Notes under the pieces: generated by a model | The model's database searches: none | What the model was told of the DNA's origin: nothing | Seen by the model: only the letters and a program-made list of their open reading frames with translations | Part shown: positions 2,198 through 61,621 of the stretch, piece after piece | Position numbering within the stretch: the stretch's first letter is position 1 | Layout: the number at the start of each line of letters is the position of its first letter | Made by a program: the position numbers and the translations under genes | From: Eledone cirrhosa | Lineage: Eukaryota | Length of the DNA stretch: 64,000 nt | Assembly (NCBI GenBank): GCA_964016885.1 | Contig: OZ024746.1 | Coordinates: 63,054,001-63,118,000, forward strand | Reading direction: 5' to 3'

Positions 2198-2371
2198 TGA
2201 TCAGTAATGTTTTCACTCATTGATCAGCCTTTATTGATTTTTCTTAGTTGAAATAGTGTTACTCAGCTCACGATCCAGGTAGTTACGCTTGGAGAAATAT
2301 CTCTTTTTGTAGGCGACCATAATGACCTAATATACGATATATGACCTGATGTCATACATGGGGCTGTTATT

Positions 2372-3146
2372 GATGTTGTTGGTGGTGATGTTGATGATGG
2401 TGGTGGTGGTGGGGGGGGGGGTTATTGTTGGTGATGGTGTTGGTGATGGTGTTGTCGTTGATGGTGGTGGTGGTGGTGGTGGTGTGGTGCTGGTGGTGGA
2501 GGTGGTACTGGTAGTGGTAGAGGTGGTGTTAGTGTTGGAGTTGTTGTTGATGGTGGTGGTGGTGGTGGGGTGCTGGTGGTGGAGGTGGTACTGGTAGTGG
2601 TGGAGGTGGTGTTAGTGTTGGTGTTGTTGTTGATGGTGGTGGTGGTGGTGTTGTTGTTGGTGGTGGTGGTGGTGTTTTTGTTGCTGATGGTGGTGGTGGT
2701 GGTGGTGGTGTTAGTGGTGGTGGAGGTGTTGTTTGTGTTGCTGTTGGTGGTGGTGGTGCTGTTGTTGGTGGTGGTGGTGTTGGTGGTGGTAGTGGTGTAG
2801 GTGGTACTGGTAGTGGTGGAGGTAGTATTAGTGTTGGTGTTGTTGGTGGTGATGGTGTTAGTGGTGGTGGAGGTGGTGGTAGTGGTGGTGGAGACGGAGT
2901 TGTTGGGGGTGGGGGTTGTGGTGGCGGAGGAGGAGGCGTTTATGGGGGAGGGGGTAGCAAGCTCGAGTTCATCTCTGATTGTACAGGTGTTCCAGCTTGT
3001 ATTCATTTTTATTAAGACAATAGGGTATGATTTTGAGGGGAATTGGAAATTTGCTGCTGTTGGTAATGATGATGATGGTGATGATGATGATGATGATGAT
3101 GGTGATGATAATGACGATGATAATGATGGTATGATGATGTTGATGG

Positions 3147-3177
<31 letters not shown>

Positions 3178-3291
3178 GGTATGATAATAATGGTGATGAT
3201 AATGATCATGATGATGATGATGGTGGTGGTGGTGGTGGTGGTGGTGGTGGTGGTGGTGGTGGTGGTGATGGTGATGGTGATGATGATGATG

Positions 3292-3322
<31 letters not shown>

Positions 3323-3410
3323 GGAGGAGGAGGAGGAGGAGGAGGAGGAGGAGGAGGAGGAGGAGGAGGAGGAGGAGGAGGAGGAGGAGGAGGAGGAAGA
3401 GGAGGAGAGG
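2372..3410. repeat. Compound trinucleotide microsatellite (GGT/GTT, GAT, GAC, GGA)n
   Basis: Directly visible; source of the poly-V/T/H/P ORFs. Confidence 0.95.
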
Positions 3411-3479
3411 GATAAATGGAGGTATATTGAAAGGGAAAAGCAAACGAGAAAGAAAACATAATATATATGTGTATTGATT

Positions 3480-3690
3480 AATTATTTCTAATCTAGACAC
3501 AAGGCCAGCAATTTTGGAGAGGGGTGAAGTCGATAAAATCGACCCTAGTATATGACTGGTACTTTATTTCATCGGTACCAGAAGGTAATGTTGTCCTCAG
3601 TGGGATTTGAACTCAGAATGTAAAGAACTGGAATAAATGTCACAAAAAATGTCGCCCCATATGCTAATGGTTCTGTCAATCCCCCGTCCT
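3480..3690 (-). mobile_element. SINE family A copy
   Basis: CACAAGGCCAGCAATT...CTGGTACTTTATTT...GGGATTTGAACTCAG. Confidence 0.75.
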
Positions 3691-4509
3691 TTATATATAT
3701 ATATGTTAATTGATGAGAAGAAGGACATCACTTAATGATGTTTATAGATCATCTCAGTCTAGTCAGATCGATTATCGATGATGTTCATATTCAGTTTAAA
3801 CAAGCAGAGAGCGATGTCTGTAAGATAAATATTTGAGCGTTGATCTGGATCTAGTGAGAGAGATATTTAAGTGGTCGCTTGACTTGTGAGAAATAACAGC
3901 CAAATCTCCCTCATTTCTCGTTGTTACTCAGATTGATGACAAAAAAAAAAATGAAAAGAAAGATGGATACTAGCAACAACAACCATTGAAAAGAAACCAT
4001 GGAAGACATTTTTTAAGGCCTGAATACAAACGACGTGAAACTATGTTTTCCGTGGATCTTATTTCTTCCTCTAACCAGCTTAGTATTCATTACCGTGATT
4101 ACCTCCTGATGGCGGCGAATTGGCAGAAGCTTACTTTCATGGATACGGCATAATTATAACAATGAGGAGTTATGTCTTGTCTCAGTACCGAGTAAGTACA
4201 TGTCACCAATGATGGTTAAACATCTAGAAACGTGTCTGAAATATTATATAGCTACTGAGATAACTATTACTTGATCACAGCTAAAATAGTCATATCGTGA
4301 CTCTTGTGTGTTTATTATACATAAACATATCATATATGCTTTCATTTAAAAGAGAGAGAGAGATGAATCAGTTAAAATATAAACTGACTCATTGGCTGCT
4401 TAATGAACACAACCACAAGGATATGCTCCGAACGTGGAAGAGCCGAACTCCCGCTGTCATCGCCTCCATCTCTCTCGCCCCCCCCCCCCCCCTCCCCATC
4501 TCTCTGTAC

Positions 4510-4812
4510 GTCAGATAGAATGATTTGCGGTATTGGTTCCGGCTCTCTGCTCTCCGAGTTCAAATCCCGCTGAAATCAACTTTATCTTTCATCCTTTCGA
4601 TATCGATAAAATAAAGTACACATCTAGTACTGAGGGGTCGATAATTCCTCTATATCGCTTTCTCACTTCCGTTCTCTCACTCTCTATCATTTTCTGAAAG
4701 AAATCAGATGCGTTCAGACCGACAAAGGAGATGGGCTCCACCAGGTTTTAAAATGCCGAGGAAACGCCGTTTGTTAATATGGCGCCCAAACGACTCCAAC
4801 AGGAGTTACGGG
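4510..4812 (+). mobile_element. SINE family A head followed by ~110-nt module C
   Basis: B box GAGTTCAAATCC and central domain, CT-rich linker, then GAAATC.G...GGAGTTACGG module. Confidence 0.6.
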
Positions 4813-5203
4813 TCCATACATATATATGATTACTTTCTTAGTCATTCACACATTATACATTTGTTTATACCTTGTACTAATGCTGAAAATGACCGTTTGC
4901 TGACCTACGTATTTATCTACATACTCTACCCTAGACTTATTCCATCTCATTTCACTTCATCTTATTTAATTGTGTGTTAGGCAAATTTGTTTCTTTCTTC
5001 TCTTTTGTCTTCACTTCCGCTTTTATCAAACTCTTACAACGCCATTTTTTTTTTATATCGTATATCTGTCTCTGCTGTTATTATTCCATTTGCAACTAAG
5101 TTGCCTTATACATACATACATACATACATACATACATACATACATACATACATACATACATACATACATACATACGTATGTATGTACATACATATATAAA
5201 TAT

Positions 5204-5272
<69 letters not shown>

Positions 5273-5899
5273 TATATATATTGTGTATATATATATGTGT
5301 GTGTGTATATATGAGAGTATATGAGTGTTTGTATGTTTGTATGCATGTTTGTATGAAGACGAAAAGACTCCGTAGCGTTGCTTCCTATGGAAAAACGGGT
5401 TTGATTTTCGAAATCTGAATTTCTTAATTCCAAAAAGAATAAAACAAAAACAAAAAATAGAAAATGACTATTACAGTGACAATTTAAGTAGTCTGTCTTT
5501 TATTGATCATCTCATGCATTCTTTCAACGTGGCCCTATTATTCCACCCATCCATGCCGCTAGCAAGGGACATTGTTTTCGCTATGAGGCAGAGAGTTGTC
5601 CTCACAGAAGTCACACGATATTTACGTGAAGACGCTCACGCTAAAGTACACAATAAGCAACTGATACCTCTTTAACATAGTTGAGTAAATTTCCATAGAA
5701 ACTACCTTGGGGAAAACTGACGATTCACGAGAACGGACCACGGGAATACCGTTCGTTTTATGTAACTGTGTGCATTTTCTTCTGCTAATATATCTATATA
5801 CTTCAGTATTTGCCTTGCACTTTATTTTATCAACCTCGGAAATATTAAAGGTCATGTTGACCTCGACAAGACTTCAATTCAAAATATAAAGTAAGGAAT

Positions 5900-6320
5900 G
5901 GTTTCTTATATAGGCACAAGGCCAGCAATTTTGGGGGAGGGGAAGTCGATTAAATCGACTCCAGTGCGTGACTGGTACTTTATTTTGTCGACCCCGTAAG
6001 GATGAAATTTAACCTCGGCAGGATTTGAACTCAGATCATAAAGGGCAGGAATAAAACTAAATAGTGCAAGAGTTAGGTGCTCTACCGATTCTGCCATATA
6101 TCTCACCATCGAACTTACGTGTATTGATTTATGACATTGACACAAGCCTACCCACATTTTCAGGGAACGTTGTTAGTGATAAAATCGACTCTTCTATTCT
6201 ATTTTATTGATCTCAACAGTATGAAAGGTAATGTTGGTCTTGGCTGGATTTGAACTCATAACGTATATGACTATCACTAAAACATTCTTTCCCACGCTCT
6301 AATGATCCTATCGATCCACT
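5900..6320 (-). mobile_element. Two SINE family A copies
   Basis: GGCACAAGGCCAGCAATT, GGATTTGAACTCA motifs. Confidence 0.7.
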
Positions 6321-7017
6321 AAACCATATAAAATTAATTAGTTTTTTTTCCCACATATAAAGATCTTTTGTTAACGTTTTATTCTCAAACATTTCTTATT
6401 TCAATTCATACAACACAATGCGTACAGTTCGTAAGCTGGCTGGTTCATTTCATGAAAATATCCGTGTTCGCTTTGCATAACCATTAAAGCAGCTTATGTA
6501 GGTTACAATATTTAAGTTAATGTCAATATATTTAGTTAATGGGCGATAAAAAAAAATTATGAGAAATAACATGCAGTGAGGAAAAAACTACGAAGTGTGT
6601 GGACAATAAGGACGACTCTATTGAAAATAAACCTCAGTTTCGTCACATTCCATGAGAGTATCTTGGTCAGCCTATGAACGTTTCAGCTGACCCTCATAAG
6701 TTAATCTCTGACTAATATCTATATTTCTGACAAGCTGTTAACGCAATCATGTTTACGTGTTATACTGACCTTATAAGCGAAGTATAGTCCTCTTTGTTCT
6801 TGTCGAAGCAGTGAAAAGTAGATCACTAAGTAAATATACAACTTTAGGTATTTGGTTGACCTAGAAAAATGTGAGTGTTTCAGGGAAGCCATCTGCATAA
6901 AATCAATACTTAAGTTAGTAACATATTTAATGCACATGTAGCATTATATAGATAAGTTGAGATAAAGGTAGTGAGCCAAATATAGAGAAAGATAAACAGA
7001 CTGGCTAGCAGACAGGC

Positions 7018-7019
<2 letters not shown>

Positions 7020-7103
<84 letters not shown>
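7020..7103. repeat. (TAGA)n microsatellite (unoccupied TATC-type array)
   Basis: Directly visible. Confidence 0.95.
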
Positions 7104-7104
<1 letters not shown>

Positions 7105-9546: not shown

Positions 9547-10099
9547 ATGTGGGTGGGTGTGGGTGTATGTGTTTATGTGGGTGGGTGTGGGTGTATGTGT
9601 GTATGTGGGTGGGTGTGGGTGTATGTGTGTGTGGGTGTGGGTGTGTATGTGTGTGTGTGTGTGTGTGTCTGCGTGTGTATGTATGTTTTATTTCGTTTCT
9701 ATGCGGAAGAGTTTATTTCTTTCATATGTCACATGTGAATAGGAAATGATATTCCAGTCATTCCTTATGGATATTTTTACATCATCACAGGGGGGGGGGG
9801 AGGTGTAGGAAGAAGAAGAAGAAGAAGAAGAGGAAAAAGAAAAGGAAAAGGAAAAAGAAAAAGAAAAAGAAAAAGAAAAAGAAAAGGTAAAAGAAGAAAA
9901 AGAAAAGGTAAAAGAAGAAGAAGAAGAAGAAGAAGAAGAAGAAGAAGAAGAAGAAGAAGAAGAAGAAGAAGAAGAAGAAGAAGAAGAGGAACGCAAGTAT
10001 TTTAGTAATCTCGGACAAGTATGGACAGTACGACATGTAAATATAATTCTAATGTAAATATAATTCGAGTGTTTCATTCGCATTTGTATATAATATATA

Positions 10100-11051
10100 T
10101 ACATTCCCGGATCATTGCATTCTATGAATGTATATAATGTAGTACATTACCTGATCATTGAATTCTATGTATGTATATAATATCCATTACTTAATCATTG
10201 AATACTATGTATGTATATAACATACATTACCGGATCATTGAATTCTATGTATGTATATAATATCCATTACTTAATCATTGAATACTATGTATGTATATAA
10301 CATACATTACCGGATCATTGGATTCTATGTATGTATATAACATACATTACCGGATCATTGAATTCTATGTATGTATATAATATCCATTACTTAATCATTG
10401 AATTCTATGTATGTATATAACATACATTACCGGATCATTGAATTCTATGTATGTATATAATATCCATTACTTAATCATTGAATTCTATGTATGTATATAA
10501 TATACATTACTTAATCATTGGATTCTATGTATGTATATAACATACATTACTTAATCATTGGATTCTATGTATGTATATAACATACATTACTTAATCATTG
10601 GATTCTATGTATGTATATAATATCCATTACTTAATCATTGGATTCTATGTATGTATATAATATCCATTACTTAATCATTGGATTCTATGTATGTATATAA
10701 TATCCATTACTTAATCATTGGATTCTATGTATGTATATAATATCCATTACTTAATCATTGGATTCTATGTATGTATATAACATACATTACCGGATCATTG
10801 GATTCTATGTATGTATATAATATCCATTACTTAATCATTGGATTCTATGTATGTATATAATATACATTACTTAATCATTGGATTCTATGTATGTATATAA
10901 CATACATTACTTAATCAATGGATTCTATGTATGTATATAATATCCATTACTTAATCATTGAATTCTATCGATGTATATAATATATATTACTTAATCATTG
11001 AATTCTATCGATGTATATAATATATATTACTTGATCATTGAATTCCGTGTA
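10100..11051. repeat. 40-bp minisatellite array 1 (TACATTACCTGATCATTGAATTCTATGTATGTATATAATA variants)
   Basis: About 24 units with interleaved variants. Confidence 0.95.
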
Positions 11052-11820
11052 TCATAATATAATAAAGAGAGAAGTGCGGGACTATGTCCTGAATATATAT
11101 TTTTTATCCCTCTAGTAAAATAAGTTGGATTACTTTGAATAAATAATTGTTTCTACTTTAGGCACAAGGCCAGCAATCACCCAGTGCATTACTGGTACTT
11201 TATTTTATCGATCCCGTAAGGATGAAAGGCAAAGTCAACCTCGGTGGGATTTGAACTCAGATCGTAAAGGGACGTAACTATGCTGGAAAGCAGGGTGTCC
11301 GACCCTCTACCGATACTGCCAATTGAATAAATAATTGTTTCTACTTTTTGGCACAAGGCCAGCAATTATAATGAATGAATATTAGATAATTTATGTACTA
11401 AATTTCGTAGCTGTTGATTAAACATAAATATTCTTATATATAATGATTGCTTATTTTAAAATTCACTTCTTTTAAAATTTTCAAATGTCAATACTTCCGG
11501 TTATGGTATAACGTATGCTATATCACATCGCTTATATATACGTTCATATACTTGCATTCTTATATAAAGTTTATATTTCTGTCTCTAATTTTCTCCTTTT
11601 TCGTTTTCATAAAATTTCACCGTAATGCAGTTTATATATAATATCGTCTTTTTTTAATGTATCATGGATTACTTTACTGATTACAGAAGACAATGTAACA
11701 CAGTCTCTCTTCAATTTCTCTGCATATTGTCAATCACTATTTTATTTGATGTATCATATCTACGTGCATGTATATTTGCGTATAATATCAATATGCACAT
11801 GTTAACAGAAAACCACCCGA
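11052..11820 (+). mobile_element. Non-autonomous Helitron-like element, copy 1 (3' end eroded, SINE-interrupted)
   Basis: Starts A|TC..TATAATAAAG; colinear with 12253-12760. Confidence 0.55.
11148..11322 (-). mobile_element. SINE family A with target-site duplication TTGAATAAATAAT
   Basis: TSD at 11135-11147 and 11323-11335; absent from the paralogous site near 12340. Confidence 0.85.
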
Positions 11821-12252
11821 ATATACAATACTTAATCATTGAATTCTGTGTATGTATATGATATACATTACCTGATCATTGAATTCTATGTATGTATATA
11901 ATATACATTACCTGATCATTGAATTCTATGTATGTATATAATATACATTACCTGATCATTGAATTCTATGTATGTATATAATATACATTACCTGATCATT
12001 GAATTCTATGTATGTATATAATATACATTACCTGATCATTGAATTCTATGTATGTATATAATATACATTACCTGATCATTGAATTCTATGTATGTATATA
12101 ATATACATTACCTGATCATTGAATTCTATGTATGTATATAATATACATTACCTGATCATTGAATTCTATGTATGTATATAATATACATTACCTGATCATT
12201 GAATTCTATGTATGTATATAATATACATTACCTGATCCTTGAATTCTATGTA
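11821..12252. repeat. 40-bp minisatellite array 2 (homogeneous)
   Basis: About 11 near-identical units, period 40. Confidence 0.95.
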
Positions 12253-12760
12253 TCTAAACTATAATAAAGTAAGGAGCCCGGGACTGCGTACGGTTTATAA
12301 CATTTTTTATCCCATTAGTAAAATAAGTTGGATTACTTTGAATAAATAATGAATATTACATAATTTATCTACTAAATTACGTGGCTGTTGATTAAATATA
12401 TTTTGGTTATTTAAAGATTCACTTCTTTAAAATTTCTGAAATGTCAACACTTCCGGTTGGCCATCGCTTAAATAAACATACTAATTTTCTGTCACTAATT
12501 TTCTCCTAATGCGGTTTATATATAATATCGTCTTTTTTTTAAATGTATCATGGATTAAATAAGACAGTGTAACACAGTCTTCGATCAATTTCTGTTTATA
12601 TTGTCAATTACAATTTTATTTGATCATATCTACATGTATATATACTTGCGTATATATACTTGCGTATATACTTGCGTATATATACTTGCGTATATATACT
12701 TGCGTATATATACTTGCGTATAATACACTAGCAGAAAACCAAGGGTGGTTTTTCTGTTAG
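12253..12760 (+). mobile_element. Non-autonomous Helitron-like element, copy 2
   Basis: 5' TC, 3' TTAG (CTAG-like), subterminal hairpin 12723-12765, inserted between A and T of a satellite unit with no TSD; internal 16-bp tandem at ~12637-12720. Confidence 0.65.
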
Positions 12761-13015
12761 TGTATCTAATATACATTACCTGATCATTGAATTCTATGTA
12801 TGTGTATAATATACATAACTAGATCATTGAATTCTATGTATGTATAATCATTGAATTCTATGTATGTATAATCATTGAATTCTATATATGTATAATCATT
12901 GAATTCTATGTATGTATAATCATTGAATTCTATGTATGTATAATCATTGAATTCTATATATGTATAATCATTGAATTCTATATATGTATAATCATTGAAT
13001 TCTATGTATGTATAA
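12761..13015. repeat. Minisatellite array 3: 40-bp units then 24-bp deletion derivative (TCATTGAATTCTATGTATGTATAA)
   Basis: Period 24 visible from ~12825. Confidence 0.9.
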
Positions 13016-14851: not shown

Positions 14852-15286
14852 ACACACACACACACAAATATATATATATATATTTGTGTGTGTGTGTGTG
14901 TATATATATATACATATATATATGCATATATATGTGTATATATATATATGTATGTATATATATATACATATATATGTATATATACACACATATATATATA
15001 CACACACACACACATAAATATTTATATATATATATATTTGTGTGTGTGTGTGAATATATGAAAATTGCAAACTTGACTGTCACCACACATTATGAACCTG
15101 AAGATTGCGAAAGCATGAAAGTACTTGTTCAATTAACACTTAACATTTAATATTCTACCATACTATTTCATTCTAATACCATTATAAATTTTAAAGGATT
15201 GTAAATAAAACGAGTAAATCAGACAAAGTTGGAATTCCTTTTATTAATATAATCTTCTATACACAATCATACACAGCCGTGTATAT

Positions 15287-15287
<1 letters not shown>

Positions 15288-15340
<53 letters not shown>
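15288..15340. repeat. (TATC)13 array at the 5' junction of Tx1 element 1
   Basis: Directly visible. Confidence 0.95.
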
Positions 15341-15554
15341 CTGGGATGGACACACGCGTATAACTTGCTGAGTAAGTTCTGTTTAAATTTCTATAGAAAT
15401 TCTTGTCTGATAACTTTAATTTTTGTACCATTTTGTAGAGGGACTGCCAGGTCAAACTTTGATCTGGTCAGTCTCTCAAAATATTCTACGCCTTTAGGCG
15501 AAATAGTTAAAAAAAAAAAAGTTTTTTCTTGTTGAAAAGTCAATATTTTTTTAA

Positions 15555-17345
15555 ATGGCCGAAGCTTCTTCACCAAAATTCGAAGGAGGAAAGGGGAAGA
15601 TGAACTTACAGCTTCCCCCTGCCACTGTCACAGTAGCAGAGGTCAAGAAGATAGGTCAGCCAGAGGAAGAATTCTCTCCACCTGTTAACCGACAACTTGA
15701 CGTTGCCATGGCAACAACCCAAAGAACCAGCAGCAACAGCAACAACAACAACAATGCGACGGACGAAAGCAACACCAATAACAATAACAATAACAACAAC
15801 AAGACCAATAACGGTGACAACAACAACAATGATAACAACAACACCACCAACGACAACAACAACACAAACAAACAAAATTTCTCCTTCGCCGAGACGACAA
15901 GGAAAACCCTCGACTATCTGCCAGTAGATATAACAAAAGCGAAGGAGCTACTGGCGGATGCGAAAAAATATATAGTGTACGGGGAAAATGGTTCATTCAC
16001 AATCCATTCCCCCCCGGAACTAAAAAGCCAGAGACTCCTAAACACGGTCATGTTTAGGACAATCTCGAACAAAAGTAAAAAACCAGCTCAACCATCACAG
16101 AGCGAGATAGAGCTGGTTTTAAAAGACGTCATGAAGGACATCGCCTTCATTCAGAAGGATAGACTCTACGGGAGTCTATCCATTCTCATGAAGGACAGGG
16201 ACACAGCAGTGAAACTGTCCATCAAACCAATCACATCCACCGCATACACCTTCTACCCTACGTACATGGGTAGAAGAACACAAAAAATAAAAATCCACAC
16301 CATCCTGCCGATTATGGACATATGGTGGGTTTTGACAGGTTTTCTGGACCTGGAGGATGACATGCTGGTGTCCATGGGAAAGGCATCGGGTGACGCGTTC
16401 AGTGGAACGAGCCTCGAACTTGTAGTTCAAATGAGGCCCGAAAGGATCGCCCAGATCCCTGAACGCGTCATACTGGATGATCTAACCTTCATCAACATTA
16501 CCGTTGAGGGTAGACGGCCCTCGTGTTACCTCTGCGGAACCAGAGGTCACCTGAGGGCTGTCTGTCCCCAACTTAATAAGAAAACCCCAATCCTGCCTAC
16601 ACCACCAACAACTGCACAACCAACACAATCACCACAACTACCACTACAAAAACAACCACCACAGCTCAAACCAAAACAAGACAATGTCCAACCCATCCCC
16701 TCCACTCAAAAAACAAAAACAATTTCCAAAACACCCGTACCGCAAACACAACCCGAAAATATACCCCTCCCCTCCAACGCGGAAGATGACCCTAGTTCGT
16801 CGTCAGACGAGGAGGAGCACTTCCACACAATCAAAAGAAAAAAAAGAAAACACACCTCAGACACACAAATGAAAAAAACCCCTCCCCAAAACATAACACT
16901 GACACCAACACAAAAGAGCTCACAAAAACAGCAAACAAAAAACACCACACAAAAACAAAAACATGCATACACATACATAAATACAAGAAACAAAAAACTG
17001 TTAAACATTGTGTACAACAACAATCTAATAAAAACACAAGGGCCTAACTTCACCCAGGCAGGGGATTTCCCCCACCTCAAAATGATTAAGGCCCCACAGG
17101 ACACCTATAAAACTTTAAAAAACAATTTTAAAGAGGACGTGGGTCCCCCCTGCGTCGGGCCCATTAACCGCGTCCTCCTAAAAAACTATCCCACCCCCTC
17201 CCCAAACACCCTCACAACTCCAAGCTCCCCAACCACACAACACACTGATGCCCCCACACTTCCACAAACCACCACCCCACCCAACAACCCATCCCCCACC
17301 CTAATGGAAATTGTGCAGCCCGATACCCGAGGCGCAGAGAGGTAA
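15555..17345 (+). CDS. ORF1 nucleic-acid chaperone of Tx1 element 1 (596 aa)
   Basis: CYLCGTRGHLRAVC (CX2CX4HX4C), basic KRKKRK NLS-like motif, Asn-rich and Pro/Thr-rich disordered tracts; homologous to 21295-23132. Confidence 0.88.
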   Translation: MAEASSPKFEGGKGKMNLQLPPATVTVAEVKKIGQPEEEFSPPVNRQLDVAMATTQRTSSNSNNNNNATDESNTNNNNNNNNKTNNGDNNNNDNNNTTNDNNNTNKQNFSFAETTRKTLDYLPVDITKAKELLADAKKYIVYGENGSFTIHSPPELKSQRLLNTVMFRTISNKSKKPAQPSQSEIELVLKDVMKDIAFIQKDRLYGSLSILMKDRDTAVKLSIKPITSTAYTFYPTYMGRRTQKIKIHTILPIMDIWWVLTGFLDLEDDMLVSMGKASGDAFSGTSLELVVQMRPERIAQIPERVILDDLTFINITVEGRRPSCYLCGTRGHLRAVCPQLNKKTPILPTPPTTAQPTQSPQLPLQKQPPQLKPKQDNVQPIPSTQKTKTISKTPVPQTQPENIPLPSNAEDDPSSSSDEEEHFHTIKRKKRKHTSDTQMKKTPPQNITLTPTQKSSQKQQTKNTTQKQKHAYTYINTRNKKLLNIVYNNNLIKTQGPNFTQAGDFPHLKMIKAPQDTYKTLKNNFKEDVGPPCVGPINRVLLKNYPTPSPNTLTTPSSPTTQHTDAPTLPQTTTPPNNPSPTLMEIVQPDTRGAER

Positions 17346-17369
17346 GTGCCTTTTCTCTTCACCACCAAC

Positions 17370-20300
17370 ATGGCTATGCTAAGAGTAGGCTGTTTAAATG
17401 CGCGTGGCCTGGGCTCAACTTGGAAGCAAGCAATGCTTCTAAATGACCTCAGGTCACAACGTATAGATGTGATGGTTATTTGCGAGGCCCGGATCAGCAA
17501 CGTGCGACAGCTGGCCCCCACCTTTGATGACTTTGAGATGCACGCATCTCTCTGTCAGCCCGGAGGTGGGGGTGGAGTTGTCGTTCTGCTGCAAAAACAT
17601 CTGGGTCTCGCAACACAGATGGTACATTTGGACCCGGAGGGTCGACTAGTGGTTCTGGACCTTGGCAGTGGTAAAGGCGGAGCGTTTAGGTTGGTAGCCG
17701 CCTACGGCCCTTTCGGGTCAATGCGGCCGGACTTCTTCCATCGTCTGGAGACTTTTCTAGGGACGTCCCGCTCCTTGCTATTAGTGGTGGACTGGAATGG
17801 TATCCTAGATGCACGCTGGGACTACGTAGGGGCCTGCCCCGATAGAGAGGGGTGTAATAGCCTCAAAGGGTTAATCGGTCGATTTGACCTGGCCGATAGA
17901 TATCGACTAGATTTTCCGACTGCGCCAACCTGGACTTGGGCAAATCGTAGCGGATCATCTAGGTCGTACCTAGATAGGTTCTTAGTTAGAATTAAGGATA
18001 AGGACTTTTTAAGTTGTCCAAAAATGCGCATTGTTGGCTATTCAGACCACAAATTAGTGACCTGCATGGTCAACCTTGACAGAACTCATAGACAGGGCCC
18101 CGGTTACTGGAAGCTCAACTTGTCCTTGCCGGCAAGTAGAGCCTACAGGAATCGGATTAGTACGTTAGTTAAGGAACGGTTGACTGGAGCGATCGTCAAC
18201 AGCAGGTGGTGGGTATCTCTAAAGAGAGAGATTAGAGTAGTCTCGATAGAATTTAGTAAGGTTCTAGCTGCGGATAGGAATAGGAAGGAAAGGGAGCTAA
18301 TAGATAGAGTAGAAGAGGCAATTAGAAGCGGCGACGTGGCCAGAGTGCTAGCGTCGAGAACGGCTTTGAGCCAGTTTTTCGACGCGAAGCACGAAGGCTG
18401 CGTTGTCCGAAGTAAAATACGTGCTCTAGGGAACGAGGGGACCAAAGCTGTTAGCTGGGCCCGCGTGACAGAGGCCAACAGTGGAACTAAATCCACCATC
18501 CGGTCTTTGCGAGACCTGGATGGACGGGCGATTCTTGAGCCTAAGCAGATGTGTGAGGCCTTTCAAAGGCACTTTGCCCGACTGTTCGGGAGGGGCGGGG
18601 AGCCGGTTGGGAACGTGGACTTCGGTCCATACCTCGACGGCCTGCCGCGCCTCTCGGACAGGGAGGCGAAGTCCTGCGAGGAGCCGATTTCGGCCGCTGA
18701 GATAGAGGACGTGCTGAGCCAATGCGGCAAACGCAAATCCCCGGGTCTCGATGGTCTTCCTTACGAATTATATCTAGCTATGCCGGACTTGTTCCCCGAT
18801 CTCCTCGAGGCGGTCTACTGCAACTGGCAACAGAACGGGAGAATTCCCTGTACTGTGACCAAGGGCGTAGTCACGCTAGTGAGGAAGGACGAGAACAAGG
18901 GGGACGAAATAAGTAACTTCAGGCCCATAACACTGCTAAATACAGAGTTACAGATTTTGGCCAAGGTGCTAGCAAAGAGGTTGGCGCTTGTCGTGGGCAA
19001 CCTGGTGGGAGATGCGCAGACATGCGCTATCCCGTCCAGGTCCATCCATGACAACCTCCACCTCATGCGATACATCATAGAGAGGGTTGGGAACGAACCC
19101 GGCTTTGGTGGGGCTCTGATCAACTTGGATCAATCTAAGGCGTTCGATAGGGTCGACCATGGTTACCTGGATGCGGTGCTAGCGGCGGCAGGCTTCGGAC
19201 CCGTTTTCAGGGGCTGGATCACTGCTATGCACAGCAGCCGCATCTGCTCTAGGGTCAAGGTGAACGGCTACCTCTCGGAGCCGTTCAAAATCGCGCGGTC
19301 CATCCGACAAGGGTGCCCTCTCTCCTCCCTTCTGTATGTGTTGACTCTCGAGCCACTACTGCGGAAGTTGGAGTTGTTGCAGGGCATCCCTTTGGAACCG
19401 GGATTGCGGAAAGCGGTGTCGGCCTACGCCGATGACGTGACAGTAATGGTGTCGACGGCCTCCGAAATCGAGGCGGTCGGCACCTTACTGGAGGAGTACG
19501 AAAAGTTCACAGGGGCTAAGCTGAACCGGGACAAGTCGATCGGTTTGCAACTCGGCACGTGGAGGGGCAGACCGATGCCCTCCGATAGCGTCGTCGGACG
19601 CTGGACGGAGGGCCCGGTGAAGTTGCTCGGGGTCTGGTTCGGACCGGACCTCCAGGTGGAGAAAAACTGGGCGGAGGTTACGAACAGGGTGTTTGCACTG
19701 ACCCAGAAGTGGGCCAGTTGCAAACTATCCCTGAAAGGTCGGGCGGAGGTGGCGAACACCTACATAGCGTCCGTCATCTACTACCGCCTGACCGTAGTGC
19801 CCTGCCCAAGGGAAACCCTCACCAAGATGGAGCGCGCGCTCTTCCAATTCCTTTGGAAGAGGCGGGCTCCTATGGTGAGGAGATCCATCTGCTGTCAACA
19901 CCCTTCGAAAGGAGGGCTGGGGATGCCGTGGCTAATGATGCGTAAACACGCATTAAGGCTACGGCACCTCTACGTATTCCTCACCGGACAACCGGTGTGG
20001 GCCTCGTTTGTGAGAGGAACCTTTCCCAGACTCGTCTCACTCACCGAGCTGCAATCCTGGGTCAAGCAAAGACCGAGAAAACTGGGCGCCTGGCACACTG
20101 AGTGTGCCCAGGCGCTCACCGCCCTCTGGCAGGCGGATCCGGTTATCAGTGGAGACTCCACCGCAACATTCTATAGAGGGCTGGTACGCAGCAGGTGCGA
20201 CGACGCCCTCGGAGAAGCCCTAGACATGGAGGAGGACGAACTGGCCAGCCTGTTCGGTAGGACATTCAGCCCGGGACCTATGGACAACTTCCAGAAGTCC

Positions 20301-20807
20301 CTGGCCTGGCAGTGCTACCGAGGGGCTTTACCCGTTCGAGAAAGGCTCTACAGACACGGGCGCCCGGGTAGGGACCCCGCCAAAAAGATCTGTCCCAGAT
20401 GCGTGTGCGACGAGGAAACCGTTGCACACGCATTAGTACACTGCTCGGGCGTAGCCGATCTGTGGGGCTATGTCGAACAACTGCTGTCAAGGGTGGGACC
20501 GATCCGGTTGACCACCGAGTCTATTGTAATGATCAAGCCGCCTCCCCCCTTCAAAGATGAAGCAGAGGCGGTGTTTCTGTGCGTAATAGCCATGGCGAAA
20601 GAGGTTGTATGGTGGACGCGTCTGAAAGGACTGAGGTCGGGCACCTTTCTCTCTGGCCAACAACTGGTCCGTTTCTTCCGATATCATTTCGGAAGAAGGA
20701 TCAGGATGGAGAGAGAGGTGCTGCACCCCAGCCGTTTCTATGAAAGATGGGTGAAAGTGGCGAGAATGGCCCGTGTGAATGGGCCTTCACTCTACATCAG
20801 ACTATAG
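17370..20807 (+). CDS. ORF2 apurinic endonuclease / reverse transcriptase of Tx1 element 1 (1145 aa from first ATG)
   Basis: APE motifs LNARGL, DWN, LDRFL, SDH; RT motifs PGLDG, RPITLLN, DQSKAFDRV, QGCPLS, YADD; C-terminal CPRC-X8-H-X4-C; uninterrupted. Confidence 0.95.
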   Translation: MAMLRVGCLNARGLGSTWKQAMLLNDLRSQRIDVMVICEARISNVRQLAPTFDDFEMHASLCQPGGGGGVVVLLQKHLGLATQMVHLDPEGRLVVLDLGSGKGGAFRLVAAYGPFGSMRPDFFHRLETFLGTSRSLLLVVDWNGILDARWDYVGACPDREGCNSLKGLIGRFDLADRYRLDFPTAPTWTWANRSGSSRSYLDRFLVRIKDKDFLSCPKMRIVGYSDHKLVTCMVNLDRTHRQGPGYWKLNLSLPASRAYRNRISTLVKERLTGAIVNSRWWVSLKREIRVVSIEFSKVLAADRNRKERELIDRVEEAIRSGDVARVLASRTALSQFFDAKHEGCVVRSKIRALGNEGTKAVSWARVTEANSGTKSTIRSLRDLDGRAILEPKQMCEAFQRHFARLFGRGGEPVGNVDFGPYLDGLPRLSDREAKSCEEPISAAEIEDVLSQCGKRKSPGLDGLPYELYLAMPDLFPDLLEAVYCNWQQNGRIPCTVTKGVVTLVRKDENKGDEISNFRPITLLNTELQILAKVLAKRLALVVGNLVGDAQTCAIPSRSIHDNLHLMRYIIERVGNEPGFGGALINLDQSKAFDRVDHGYLDAVLAAAGFGPVFRGWITAMHSSRICSRVKVNGYLSEPFKIARSIRQGCPLSSLLYVLTLEPLLRKLELLQGIPLEPGLRKAVSAYADDVTVMVSTASEIEAVGTLLEEYEKFTGAKLNRDKSIGLQLGTWRGRPMPSDSVVGRWTEGPVKLLGVWFGPDLQVEKNWAEVTNRVFALTQKWASCKLSLKGRAEVANTYIASVIYYRLTVVPCPRETLTKMERALFQFLWKRRAPMVRRSICCQHPSKGGLGMPWLMMRKHALRLRHLYVFLTGQPVWASFVRGTFPRLVSLTELQSWVKQRPRKLGAWHTECAQALTALWQADPVISGDSTATFYRGLVRSRCDDALGEALDMEEDELASLFGRTFSPGPMDNFQKSLAWQCYRGALPVRERLYRHGRPGRDPAKKICPRCVCDEETVAHALVHCSGVADLWGYVEQLLSRVGPIRLTTESIVMIKPPPPFKDEAEAVFLCVIAMAKEVVWWTRLKGLRSGTFLSGQQLVRFFRYHFGRRIRMEREVLHPSRFYERWVKVARMARVNGPSLYIRL

Positions 20808-21294
20808 GTGAGGAAGATGAAAGACCAAGGGAGCACCCCTTCTCTGTGCTCCTGAGGAGAAGGGTTGCACACTTTTTTCGGGGGTGTGTGCGACCCCCCA
20901 AGGCGCCTCCTCTCTATTGAGGATTTTGTTAAAAATTTTATTTTTTGTTATATCTTATTTTATTTTTATATTTTGTTATTGCCTTCTCCTTATTGAGGAC
21001 GCCTTTTTGTGTAAACTCCCCCCTTTGTACTTGTCCCACTTTTGATGCCCTAGTGGCAAATAAAAGAAATATATCTATCTATCTATCTATCTTGATAGAG
21101 TAAGACACGCTTCACATCGGCTCCGCTATTCCATAGGGATTTACCCTTACTATTGTAAGTACCGGATAAATTTTTCAGTGCAACACATTTGGAATACTAA
21201 CCCCTGTTATTTAGGGAAACATTTTTGCATTTACCCCCTTTTTAGGGGGTAAAATAAATATCTATTTTTGCCGAAAAATTTCTTTCTTGGCAGC

Positions 21295-23132
21295 ATGGCG
21301 GAAAAGATGGCAGACATGTCTGCCATTAGCTCTGCCATGCCCCCCAAGTCTGAAGAACAAAAAATAATTACAACAAAATTAGACAATGAAACAAACAAAG
21401 AAAATGAAAAAACAAATGTTAAGGAAAATGAGCAAACGGAAAACAAACAAACAGAAAATAATACAAATAACAACAGGGCAACTTTCGCCCAGAAAACAAA
21501 ACAATCCATTACATACACACCAATTGACCTAACTGCCGCCAGAGAAAAACTGGCCGAAGCAAAGAAACACATTGTTTTGGGGGAGAACGGAATGTTTTCC
21601 ATTAACTCCCCCCCAGAATTCAAGAAAGAAAGAACAGAGAACACAGTTCTCTTCAGAACTATACTGAACCAGACAAGAAAGCCAGCACAGCCCAGCCAAA
21701 TGGAAATAGAGTTAGTCCTAAAAGACTATATGAAGAATATTCTCTTAATACGAAAGGACCGACTCTATGGCCGCATTTCGGTCCTAACAAGAGACAAGGA
21801 AACGGCGGAGAAGCTTTCCCTAAGCCCACTCTCATCGACAACATACAGCTTCTATCCCTCCTACATGGGTAGAAGAACACAGAGAGTAAAAGTAAAAACA
21901 ATGCTGCCCACAATGGACTTCTGGTGGGCTATTGCTGGCTTCATAGACATGGGCGAAGACACAATGCTGTCAATGGGGAAGGCAACTGGAGATGCGTTCC
22001 TGGGAATGGGCCTCGACATACTAGTCCAAATGAGGCCCGAAAGAATAGCACAAATCCCGGATCGCATCTGGCTGGATGACCTTACCCCAATAGACATAAT
22101 TGTAGAGGGGAGAAGACCAGCATGCTATTTATGCATGGAAAGGGGACACGTTAAGGCTAACTGCCCGAAACGTATCCCCCAAAAAGGACTATTGCCCACA
22201 CCCACCACAAACAGTACACCAACACCACCCACCTCCAAAAATACACTAATACCACACACAGCAAACAAAATACAGACACCACCAACCACAAACACAACAC
22301 AAACATCACCACCACCAGCACCAAACACAAGCACGACACAAAAATCACCACCACCAACCACAACACAAACATCACCACCACCATCACCAACCACAAGCAC
22401 GACACAAACATTACCACCACCACCACAAAACCCATTCCAAACAAATAATAAAAAAAACAGTAACAAATCTACCCCTCCCGCAAAAAAAAAACAACCACAC
22501 AACACGTCCCTCCCACCTAGCGCTGAAGAGTTTCCCCCAACTTCTGAAGAAGAAGGAGGAGAAGCCTTCAGACAAGTTAAAAGAAAAAAAAGAAAACACA
22601 CACCCAGCACACCACAAATAACCCACACACAAACACCAACTCCAATCAAAAACACCCCACCCTCAACAAACAAAAATAAATCTGCGCCTCCCCTCTCCGA
22701 AACATTGACAGCATCACAAAAAAAGACGTTGCAATACACATATATAAATAAAGAAAACAAAAAACTGGTTAAATTAATAAACAATAACCCTATGGTGCAG
22801 ACCGAAGGGCCAAACTTTATCTCAACAGAGAACTTCACCCATTTTAAAATGATAAAGGTCCCTCTGGACCTTTATCGTTCCTTAAAAGAACAATTTAGAC
22901 GGGACGTGAGCCCCCCCCCCCCTGTTTAAAACCGTTGAATCGCGTCCTCTTGAAAGATTTCCCCATAACCGCCCCTCTCCCTGACACAACTCCAAATACC
23001 CCAACCCCACCACACACGTGTACCCCCACACCACCACAAAACATCCCTCCACCCAACACACCTGATGCCATGGAAATTACGCAACCCGGAGAGGTAGGTG
23101 CTTTTCTTGCTTCACTTTCAACACCAAAATAG
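21295..23132 (+). pseudogene. ORF1 of element 2, frameshifted in a C-run near 22911-22922
   Basis: CYLCMERGHVKANC knuckle; C-terminal NRVLLKDFP homology continues in another frame (22935-23132). Confidence 0.85.
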
Positions 23133-26100
23133 ATCAATTGAGAGTTGGCTGTTTGAACGCGCGTGGCCTGGGCTCAGCTTGGAAGCAAGCAAAGCTTCTA
23201 AGTGACCTCAGGTCACAAAGTATAGATGTGATGGTTGTTTGCGAGAGTCGGATCAGCAGCGTGAGACAGCTGGCGCCTTCGATGACTTTGAGATGCACGC
23301 ATCTCTCTGTCAACCCGGAGGCGGGGGGGGGGGGGGAGTTGCCGTACTGCTGGATAAACGTCTGACTCTCGACGTACAGATTGTTCACTCGGACCCGGGG
23401 GGTCGATTACTGGTGCTGGACGTCGGAGCCGGTGAAGGCGGGGCTTTCAGACTGGTCGGTCTTTATGCTCCCTTCGGGGCGGAAAGAGCCGACTTCTTCC
23501 AGCGTCTGGAGACTTTTCTAGGAACGTCGCGTTCCCTGCTTTTAGTGGGGGACTGGAATGGAATCCTAGATGCGCGTTGGGACTATGCAGGGGCATGTCC
23601 CGATAGAGGGGGATGTAGCAGCCTCAAGGGGTTACTCGATCGATTCGACCTGGTCGATAGATTTCGACTAGATTGTCCAACTGCGCCAACCTGGACCTGG
23701 GCAAACCGCAGTGGACAATCTAGATCGTACCTAGATAGGTTTTTGGTTAGGAGTAAGGATAGGGACGTATTTAGTTGTCCAGAACTGATCATGGTTGGCT
23801 ATTCAGATCACAAATTAGTGACCTGCGTGGTCAACCTTGATAGAACGCATAGACAGGGTCCCGGTTACTGGAAGATGAACTTGTCCTTGCCGACAAAGAA
23901 AGATTACAGAAACCGGATTAGTAGCTTAGTTAAGATGCGGTTGACGGGAGCGATCGTCAACAGTAGGTGGTGGGTATCTCTAAAGAGAGAGATTAGAGTA
24001 AGTTCGATAGGCTACAGTAAGGAACTAGCGGCGAATAGAAATAGGAAGGAAAGGGAGTTAACAGATAAACTAGAAGAGGCGATTAGGAGCGGAGAAGGTA
24101 GCCAGAGTGTTAGCGGCGAGAACGGCGTTGAGCCAGTTCTTTGACGCGAAGCACGAAGGCTGCGTTGTCCGAAGTAAAATACGTGCTTTAGGAAACGAGG
24201 GGACCAAAGCTGTTAGCTGGGCCCGCGTGACAGAAGCCAAGAGTGGGATTAAATCCACCATTCGGTCTTTGCGAGACCAGGATGGATGGGTGATCCTTGA
24301 ACCTGAGCGAATGTGCGAGGCCTTTCAAAGGCACTTTGCTCGACTGTTCGGAGGTGGCGGGGGGCCGGACGGGGATGTGGACTTCGGTCCATACCTCAAC
24401 GGTCTACCGCGTCTTTCGAGCGGCGAAGCGGAGTGCTGCGAAAGGCCAATCACAGCCACTGAAATCGGGGAAGCGCTCAGCCAATGCAGCAGACGCAAAT
24501 CCCCGGGTCTCGATGGTCTACCATACGAACTTTATTTAGCTATGCCGGTCTTATTCTCCGAACTCCTCGAGGCTGTCTATTGCAACTGGCAACAGAACGG
24601 GAGAATTCCCTGTTCTGTGACCAAGGGCGTGGTCACGCTAGTGAGGAAGGACGAGAGCAAGGGGGACGACTTAAGTAACTTTAGGCCCATAACTCTGCTG
24701 AATGCAGAGTTACAGATTTTGGCCAAGGTGTTGGCGAAGAGGTTGGCGCTTGTGGTGGGTGGTTTGGTGGGAGACGCGCAGACATGCGCTATCCCGTCCA
24801 GGTCCATTCACGACAACCTCCACCTCATGCGATACATCATAGAGAGGGTTGGCTACGAACCCGGCTTTGGTGGGGCCCTGATCAACTTGGATCAATCTAA
24901 GGCGTTCGATAGGGTCGACCATGGTTACCTGGATGCGGTGCTAGCGGCGGCGGGCTTCGGACCCGTTTTCAGGGGCTGGATTTCTGCCATGCACAGTGGC
25001 AACATCTACTCTAGGATTAAAGTAAACGGCTACCTCTCGGAGCCGTTTCAAATCACCCGGTCCATCAGACAGGAGTGCCCCCTCTCCTCCCTTCTGTACG
25101 TATTGACTCTCGAGCCACTGCTGCGGAAGTTGGAGTTGCTGCGGGGCATACCCCTGGAACCGGGATTGCACAAAGCGGTCTCGGCCTATGCCGACGACGT
25201 AACAGTAATGGTGGCGGACGCCTCGGAAATCGGGGCGATCGCCACCCTACTGGAGGAATACGAAAGGCTGACGGGGGCTAGGCTGAACCAGGACAAGTCA
25301 GTCGGTTTGCAACTCGGAACGTGGAGGGGCAAACCGATGCCGTTAGACGGTGTCGTCGGGCGGTGGACGGAGGGCCCGGTGAAGCTGCTCGGGGTCTGGT
25401 TCGGACCGGACCTCCAGGTGGAGAAGAATTGGGGCGAGGTGACGAGCAGGGTGTTTGCGCTGACCCAGAAGTGGGCCAAGTGCAAACTATCACTGAAAGG
25501 TCGGGCGGAGGTGACGAGCGCTTACATAGCGTCCGTCATCTACTACCGCCTGACCGTCGTGCCTTGCCCCAAGGAAAAGCTCACCATCATGGAACGCATG
25601 CTCTTCCAGTTCCTCTGGAAGAAGCGGCCTCCCATGGTGAGGAGATCCATCTGCTGCCAGCACCCTTTGAAAGGAGGGCTTGGTATGCCGTGGCTGTTGA
25701 TGCGAGAAAACTGGGCAACTGGCACACCGAGTGTGCCCAGGCGCTCACGGCTATCTGGCAAGCGGACCCGACTGTCAGTGGAGAATCCACCTCGACATTC
25801 TATAGAGGGTTGGTGGCTAGCAAGGGCGACGACACCCTTGGAGAGTCGCTAGGCATGGAGGAGGACGAACTGGCCAGCCTGTTCGGTAGAACTTTCGGCC
25901 CGGGACCCATGGACAACTTCCAGAGGTCCCTAGCCTGGCAGTGTTACCGAGGGGCTCTTCCCGTTCGAAAAAAGCTCTACAGACACGGGCGCCCGGGCAG
26001 GGATCCCGCGAAAAAGATCTGCCCCAGATGCGTGCGCGACGAGGAAACCGTTGCGCATGCACTGGTACACTGCCCGGGCGTTGCCGATCTGTGGGGCTAC

Positions 26101-26436
26101 GTCAAACGACTGCTGTCGCGTGTGGCGCCGATTCGATTAACCGCCGGGTCTGTGGTGAACATCAAGCCGCCTCCTCCCTTCAGAAATGAAGCAGAGGCGG
26201 TCTTTCTGTGCGTAATAGCCATGATGAAAGAGGTTGTGTGGTGGACGCGCCTGAAAGGTCTGAGGTCGGGTGACTTTCTCTCCGGCCATCACCTGGTTTA
26301 CTTCTTCCGATACCACTTCGGAAGAAGGATCAGGATGGAGAGAGAAGTGCTTGGCCCCAGACAGTTTTATGAAAGGTGGGTGAAAGAAGCGAGAATGGCT
26401 CGTGTAAATGGGCCTTCTCTCTACATTGTTCTGTAG
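23129..26436 (+). pseudogene. ORF2 of element 2, disrupted
   Basis: ATG reads ATA; 4-nt deletion near 23277; +1 near 24097; ~133-bp deletion near 25704 relative to element 1 (19943-20075); QGCPLS changed to QECPLS; YADD retained. Confidence 0.9.
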
Positions 26437-26698
26437 GTGAAGAAGTGAAGAGGAAAGGGGGAGCGCCTCCTCTCTGGGCTTCCCCCGCGAAAAGGGTTGC
26501 ACACTTTTCGGGGGTATGTGCAATCCCGAACACGCCCCCTCCCTTTTGAGGACTTTTTATTATTATATTATTATTGTTATTCCTTTTTCTTTACTCGATT
26601 TATGTAAACTCCCCCACTGTGTATTTGTCCCCTTCTTTTGTGCCCTCGTGGCAAATAAATAGAAATTTATCTATCTATCTATATATACACATATATAT

Positions 26699-56180: not shown

Positions 56181-56208
56181 TTATAATAATAATAATAATA
56201 ATAATAAT

Positions 56209-56392
56209 AATTGTTTCTACTTTTGGCACAAGGCCAGTAATTATCCCAGTGCATTACTGGTACTTTATTTTATCGACCCCGTAAGGATGAAAGGCAAAGT
56301 TAACCTCGGCGGGATTTGAACTCAGATCATAAAGGGGCGTAACTCTATACGTGAAAGCATGGCGTCCGACCCTCTACCGATACTGCCAATCG
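56209..56392 (-). mobile_element. SINE family A, tail-to-tail with the Dong-type element
   Basis: Shares the (AAT)n run at ~56183-56209. Confidence 0.88.
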
Positions 56393-61366: not shown

Positions 61367-61418
61367 AAGTTAACATTAAAAAAAAACGAAAGAAGAAAAA
61401 CACATTAGATATTATAAT

Positions 61419-61621
61419 TGTTTCTACTTTTTGCACAAGGCCAGCAATTACCCAGTGCATTACTGGTACTTTATTTTATCGACCCCGCCGAGGTTAACTT
61501 TGCCTTTCATCCTTAGATGAAAGGCAGAATTAACCTCGGCGGGATTTGAACTCAGAATGGCAAGGGCCGTAACTCTATGCGTCAAAGCATGGCGTCCGAC
61601 CCTCTACCGATACTACCAATC
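61419..61621 (-). mobile_element. SINE family A with 18-bp TSD and internal inverted duplication
   Basis: TSD CACATTAGATATTATAAT at 61401-61418 and 61622-61639. Confidence 0.88.

Follow-up and report, generated by a model that had tools for sequence, protein, structure and literature searches.

An ORF1 with a CCHC knuckle is a feature of target-specific LINEs of the Tx1 clade, among which families residing in tRNA and 5S genes bear the names Dewa and Mutsu. Targets reported for Tx1 elements include (TC)n, (TTC)n and (TTCC)n/(TTTC)n microsatellites, U2 genes and transposons, and tandem insertions around the target site duplication have been described (PMC4494074). The microsatellite targets listed in PMC3812793 are ACAY, AC, TC, TTC and TAA, a list in which GATA does not figure, and the same source regards the endonuclease residues that set specificity as not well understood. 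In chimeras of L1 and Tx1L, the minor-groove or hairpin loop of the endonuclease affects the choice of target (PMC1950540). An expansion of L1-Tx1 elements has been reported for coleoids (PMC8967140).

The locus described here lies in a 64,000-nucleotide stretch of Eledone cirrhosa DNA, the whole of which was analysed (hereafter the window), and contains two L1/Tx1-type LINEs in a (TATC)n site. An endonuclease preferring TATC/GATA, combined with a duplication of about 15 bp that rebuilds the target, probably explains how two sister LINE families came to be stacked in one site.

Organization of the target site

Both elements lie head to tail on the forward (+) strand, to which all coordinates refer, in the order (TATC)13–element 1–(TATC)5–element 2–(TATC)3. 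A unique 76-bp flank (Block A, 15215..15290), the first copy of a local tandem duplication, leads into the left target copy TT(TATC)13T (15286..15340, with the thirteen units at 15288-15339). Element 1 (~15341..21069), in which both ORFs are open, is followed by the middle target copy TA(TATC)5T (21070..21092, units at 21072-21091), which differs by one mismatch from the empty site described below. Element 2 (21093..26665), a disabled copy of a sister family with both ends present, is followed by the right target copy TT(TATC)3T (26666..26680, units at 26668-26679), likely a 15-bp duplication and identical to the empty site. All three element junctions fall within TATC arrays, and both 5' junctions come directly after TATCT. 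At its 3' junction element 1 has TATATC, and both elements end in AATAAA-(T)AGAAA right before TATC. Poly(A) is absent from both 3' ends, the longest run of A in the last 32 nt being 4 and 3, respectively. The initial annotation, in which two same-strand elements were stacked in (TATC)n without poly(A), is confirmed as to both the arrays and the 3' ends.

TATC/GATA arrays of at least three units make up 180 of the 64,000 bases of the window (0.28%, junction arrays counted in), and three exact junctions in so small a fraction are not a matter of chance. Microsatellites are very dense in the window (149 rows), and (TA)n arrays are far commoner than TATC arrays. A perfect GATA array of 21 units (7018-7104) is unoccupied, with no element end on either side, so long arrays are not always occupied. 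The window also holds minisatellites of 40, 48, 147 and 71 bp (10085-12843, 30307-30964, 47761-48344 and 27774-28073).

The 76 bp preceding the first array are repeated with 97% identity at 26883-26958, where they are followed by TT(TATC)3T and no element (Block A' with its empty paralogous target, 26883..26968), a recurrence that the initial annotation had missed. Behind element 2 lies an interrupted (TA)n block (26681..26882), likely the homologue of the block 3' of the empty site: among 236 TA-rich windows, its best non-self match was the block after the Block A' copy, with a score of 122.5 against 108.5 for the next best. The locus thus appears to be a tandem duplication of about 290 bp with one copy filled and one empty, for which the (TA)n match offers moderate support. 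The left, right and empty sites have the 15-mer TT(TATC)3T in common, and the middle copy agrees with it in 14 of 15 positions. Since the empty twin reads TT(TATC)3T, TATC was already at the locus before the elements arrived. The target site duplication was likely about 15 bp, TT(TATC)3T, with a length that is uncertain inside the repeat (13-15 nt): the middle copy begins with TA and not TT, so these 2 nt may be element-derived, in which case the duplication would be 13 bp within a longer original array. The empty twin could also be a second allele placed in tandem.

Anatomy of the two elements

ORF1 of element 1 (15555..17345) encodes 596 aa with one CCHC knuckle at aa 324-337 (Pfam E 0.05, below the cut-off). 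Its ORF2 (17370..20807; 1145 aa from the first ATG) comprises an APE endonuclease, an RT and a C-terminal zinc motif, of which Pfam placed RVT_1 above the cut-off and Exo_endo_phos (E 5e-4) and zf-RVT (E 4e-5) below it. In ORF2 of element 2, Exo_endo_phos lay above the cut-off. The best relative of ORF2 among solved structures was human L1 ORF2p, with 163 bits against 72 for R2; the APE domain alone matched no solved structure. The catalytic motifs of ORF2, labelled after the residues of L1, were located in the sequence. The 5' end of the element 1 family is ragged by 1-2 nt after TATCT, family contigs starting at 15340-15342.

The endonuclease motif reads VDWN in element 1 and GDWN in element 2 and in all ten relatives checked. 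Because of this substitution, the activity of element 1 would seem not to be assured despite its open ORFs, and its earlier description as intact holds for the reading frames but not for the conserved motif. Element 2 carries several lesions. Its ORF1 (21295..23096) has a frameshift in a C run near 22911, and the frame stops at 22929. Its ORF2 (23129..26436) starts with ATA and shows frameshifts near 23274 and 24095, a 133-bp deletion at 25703 and a QG-to-QE change in the RT. Both elements had been called full length; both ends of element 2 are indeed present, but 133 bp of its ORF2 are missing.

A knuckle of the form CX2CX4HX4C occurs in ORF1 of both elements, as is expected of Tx1, and a homologue search with ORF1 returned nothing at E<=0.001. 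Low-complexity repeats in ORF1, rich in Asn or in Thr/Pro/Gln, differ between the families (15734-15864, 16601-16679 and 22199-22431). Splice-donor-like sequences (AGGTAAGT/AGGTAGGT) are found at the ORF1 stop in both elements (17336-17370 and 23088-23129) and in a 41%-identical relative (L083:1720-1740).

Flanks of other copies

The 5' end of element 1 was checked in contigs of four public runs (X1, X4, X5 and X7), for the element 1 family only. It was covered by 65 contigs from X1 and by one from X5, which ends at the boundary (15340); no contig of X4 or X7 matched it, which is no proof of absence. Upstream flanks were available from the best six of ten rows of loose ends in a single sample (X1), four of which lay upstream and represented five contigs. 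Within these rows, three of the five upstream contigs of other element 1 copies have TATCT at the junction. A lack of TATC at the 5' junctions of other copies, which the initial annotation had named as the observation that would count against it, was therefore not what these flanks gave, and together with the empty paralogous site they bear out its proposal that TATC is a genomic target and not just a tail of the element. One TATCT-ending contig has just two TATC units after 255 nt of unlike DNA; with its unique DNA and two units, it is an independent founder site. Over the last ten TATC letters, the contig depths sum to 2,713-6,810, compared with 2,355 for the exact contig of the family, depth being no copy number. 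In PMC4494074 a family counts as target-specific when more than 20% of its flanks hold one type of sequence; here TATCT is found in three of five contigs and in the summed depth, in a small sample confined to element 1 and one run.

The other two upstream contigs, which share one row, appear to end in (TA)n, from a mixed consensus with an agreement of 0.7. Given these TA-rich flanks, targeting of TATC is likely a preference, not absolute, and looks relaxed towards (TA)n. The same flanks, the TATATC at the 3' junction of element 1 and the position of the site among (TA)n blocks would also fit a looser taste for TA-rich DNA, with (TA)n and (TATC)n accepted alike and TATC merely the commonest outcome. 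We consider this unlikely: in a window where (TA)n is so much the commoner repeat, the three junctions are nevertheless TATC and both 5' junctions follow TATCT, and the summed upstream TATC depth matches that of the family contig.

Stacking of relatives at other spacers

A genome record filed as that of a bacterium (G001) includes DNA of eukaryote type in which ORF2 has 84 matches, the full-length ones at about 41% identity. The contigs concerned (L081-L117, L121 and L125-L137) consist of arrays of mostly intact Tx1-like elements, each array with a spacer of its own; they are likely contamination by host DNA and offer a good system for the study of stacking. Copies of these relatives follow one another head to tail at intervals of 6.4-6.9 kb. 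A pattern search, which misses some arrays, caught 43 of their 3' ends; none has poly(A), and each leads into a short spacer, which in three cases is then followed by a 5'-truncated copy. The spacers are non-TATC and up to 17 nt long, and no array of at least three TATC units was found in 39 overlapping loci, nor in 125 loci overall. Among 12 stretches near array ends, four have the spacer between the last copy and unique DNA (10-17 letters shared), one has it after unique DNA, four are internal junctions and three gave no match; locus L108 provides another left array end. In two relatives (L129 and L137), the same spacer motif stands at array ends whose flanks differ, which suggests a target of the subfamily. 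A single-protein metagenome scan and an alignment scan of viral contigs confirmed no relative.

Judged by these arrays, the whole lineage is in the habit of stacking, without poly(A), at a short duplication that is regenerated, and TATC is the site of the present subfamily. The stacked relatives support the earlier proposal that the duplication regenerates the target and lets copies pile up. Of the "TATC-specific" lineage also proposed, the preference stands and the specificity does not, since two of the five upstream contigs are TA-rich and the wider lineage occupies non-TATC sites.

The predicted minor-groove loop of the endonuclease is nearly identical in elements 1 and 2; in the 21 relatives that matched the pattern, both its length and its sequence are different. 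An identical or nearly identical loop is shared by eight of the relatives, which nevertheless stack at different, unrelated spacers, so that this loop cannot be all that determines the target. Such long stacks would also be expected if each copy inserted where an earlier one ends, at its 3' junction, and reused its duplication, TATC then being an inherited tail or founder site and element 1 the first to arrive, and the shared AATAAA-(T)AGAAA just ahead of TATC could be read in the same way. The founder TATC at this locus, however, has no element end upstream and its empty twin contains TATC as well; at the independent locus, unique DNA and two TATC units precede element 1; and the common spacer motif of L129 and L137 in differing flanks speaks for a subfamily target. 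Such homing to earlier copies is in our view quite improbable, and a preference of the endonuclease for TATC remains the better account.

A predicted hairpin at the RNA 3' end

Both elements have a predicted 4-bp hairpin ahead of AATAAA with the loop CT(A/C)GT: CTAGT in element 1 (21046..21064) and CTCGT in element 2 (26641..26659), in each case with AATAAA next and no poly(A). Across the two elements and eight variants from relatives, the loop is kept and two stem pairs are swapped; stems of at least 4 are found in 11 of the 335 loops of this kind in the window. The 3' end as a whole folds no better than shuffled sequences (z -0.6 and -1.2), nor do the 5' UTRs. The conserved loop would be in keeping with an RNA that is recognized by a stem-loop in place of poly(A).

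An abundant SINE-like repeat (45511-45855, 35102-35281, 11143-11369, 400-574, 56207-56388, 48473-48654 and 61414-61618) terminates in a hairpin whose loop is CTTGT, with AATT(ATT)n behind it. The stem of this hairpin is more like those of the distant relatives than those of elements 1 and 2, so another Tx1 subfamily may mobilize it.

Two independent and young families

The 5' UTRs of the two elements are unrelated, their best local score being reached by 100 of 1000 shuffles. In ORF1 the identity amounts to 56% for aa 66-339 and to 44% for aa 394-532, and ORF2 is 84% identical at the amino acid level, with a dS of 0.39 and a dN/dS of 0.24 over 1,096 codons. The unrelated 5' UTRs and these rates argue that two families which had diverged as working lineages were inserted independently, as opposed to decay after a duplication; the initial annotation had come to the same view.

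High-depth family contigs of public runs match both elements at about 99% identity. Element 1 showed 6 differences in 1,619 letters in run X4 and 9 in 3,135 over eight listed pieces in run X6. For element 2, the counts were 0/160, 1/158, 0/277 and 2/164 in runs X1 and X2, and 16/791 in ORF1 in run X4. Deep family contigs lack the indels that element 2 has near 22911, 23273 and 24097; element 2, previously described as decayed, is therefore a copy with real lesions but not the member of an old family. Single family contigs reach depths of 2,355-3,528, against mostly 3-25 for low-copy contigs, which suggests some hundreds of copies, a rough figure as depth is no copy number. The single flank contig listed is only 91% like the window, and the organism sampled may be a close relative of the source of the window and not the source itself. 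The nearest named protein to ORF2 is from Argonauta hians (62% identity over 59% of ORF2), which makes an octopod host likely. A third, badly decayed relative at 44300-45450 was detected as tblastn pieces of 42-69% identity with insertions; it has no recognizable 3' end and no TATC flank.

Passive accumulation, with little preference at insertion and survival in repeat-rich DNA, has been suggested for Waldo-A/B of Drosophila (PMC3812793) and would suit a window so rich in microsatellites, but it is very unlikely for copies this young, whose junctions are nucleotide-exact and in phase within 0.28% of the window. Duplication of a single element or an assembly artefact, to which the local tandem duplication of the flank and the possible allelic nature of the empty twin might point, can practically be dismissed in the face of unrelated 5' UTRs, a dS of 0.39 under purifying selection and separate high-depth contigs for each family.

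Proposed mechanism of insertion and stacking

The arrangement that a TATC-preferring endonuclease has to account for is that of two elements bounded by TATC with an empty twin adjoining. By analogy with target-primed reverse transcription of the APE type, the ORF2 protein would nick the GATA strand near the start of a run and copy its own RNA from the 3' end. This RNA, having no poly(A), might be recognized through the small 3' hairpin with the loop CUNGU before AAUAAA. Judging from the junctions, a second nick would follow about 15 nt on, after TATCT, and yield the duplication TT(TATC)3T. The left and middle copies could later have slipped to 13 and 5 units.

The order of insertion had been deduced from a 3' junction, a deduction we cannot retain, as either order gives the same structure of site–element–site–element–site. 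Element 2 has the larger number of private differences, and element 1 has TA at its 3' junction; both points tip the balance slightly towards element 2 having inserted first.

A bolder and on the whole doubtful extension would be that these families seek seeds of two or three TATC units and that their insertions manufacture GATA microsatellites (the empty site has 3 units, the occupied ones 13, 5 and 3). The lineage would then re-target its own sites and stack head to tail at the short duplication of the founder, with the target changing under the same endonuclease loop.

Two young sister families with one target and relatives with others form a natural series for the study of the endonuclease residues that set specificity. 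GATA microsatellite loci in such genomes can, moreover, hide insertion polymorphisms of 6 kb.

Comparison with known target-specific LINEs

ORF2 has the N-terminal APE endonuclease, the RT and the C-terminal Cys/His motif by which the L1 group of non-LTR elements is defined. In an IQ-TREE reconstruction with 39 of 136 rows, which contained no named Tx1 and no mammalian L1, the lineage came out as a branch with 100/100 support within a fork, left unresolved, that also holds U2-flanked, 5S-flanked and other elements, and FastTree did not resolve the clade either. ORF2 is 27-29% identical to U2- and 5S-flanked elements, whose genes were identified by Rfam (303-420 tblastn bits), and matches human L1 with an E value of 6e-47 in phmmer, the two programs being different; it appears closer to the elements in U2 and 5S genes than to human L1. 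Weak tblastn matches of ORF1 to the U2-flanked loci L015 and L001 (E 7e-5 to 4e-3) were also recorded. By similarity, both elements likely belong to the Tx1 clade, and they resemble its target-specific members.

Metagenome contigs contain Tx1-like elements beside U2 (L008, L011 and L015), 5S (L016 and L020) and U1 (L118) genes. Keno-type elements in U2 snRNA genes (PMC4494074; loci L008, L011 and L015) share 28-29% identity with ORF2 over nearly its whole length. At the U2-flanked loci the target starts with GTATCT right after the 3' end of the element, and so has TATCT in common with the present site; in L008 the same 15-17 nt occur at both junctions. In contrast to the present families, those elements have an RNA gene as target and an A-rich or poly(A) tail, and they occupy a separate branch of the tree. 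No Rfam family was matched anywhere in the 64-kb window, which rules out an RNA gene (U2, tRNA or 5S) as the target here and separates the two elements from Keno, Dewa and Mutsu.

Sequential tandem insertions around a target site duplication are likewise known from SINEU-3 and Tx1-Mar of crocodilians, where the target is Mariner and the stacked units are SINEs (PMC4494074). Tx1L of Xenopus also has a sequence-specific APE endonuclease with a hairpin loop that contributes to target choice, but its target is the transposon Tx1D and its specificity was shown in vitro (PMC1950540), whereas the preference of the present elements is deduced from sequence. For Octopus vulgaris, 80 L1-Tx1 families, 13 of them recently active, and 421 insertions have been reported (PMC13282606). 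The two families described here may be among them; the main text and one supplement of that report contain neither "GATA" nor "target", and name no target.

The closest parallels are Kibi in (TC)n and Koshi in (TTC)n of teleosts and the crocodilian Tx1 elements on (TTCC)n/(TTTC)n, which are likewise two-ORF LINEs of the APE type in short, TC-containing microsatellites (PMC4494074, PMC3812793). No (TC)n- or (TTC)n-flanked element occurred among the 40 loci with scanned 3' flanks, and the junctions at the present locus are TATC and not (TC)n or (TTC)n. No TATC/GATA-targeting Tx1 was found in the literature covered, mostly title-level listings, the Repbase and Dfam catalogues and the target alignments of PMC4494074 lying outside the comparison. 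As far as this literature goes, (TATC)n is likely a new target for a known class of repeat-seeking LINEs. With (TATC)n/(GATA)n, the short list of microsatellites targeted by LINEs of the APE type grows by one entry, and a cephalopod joins the hosts in which Tx1-like elements target such repeats.
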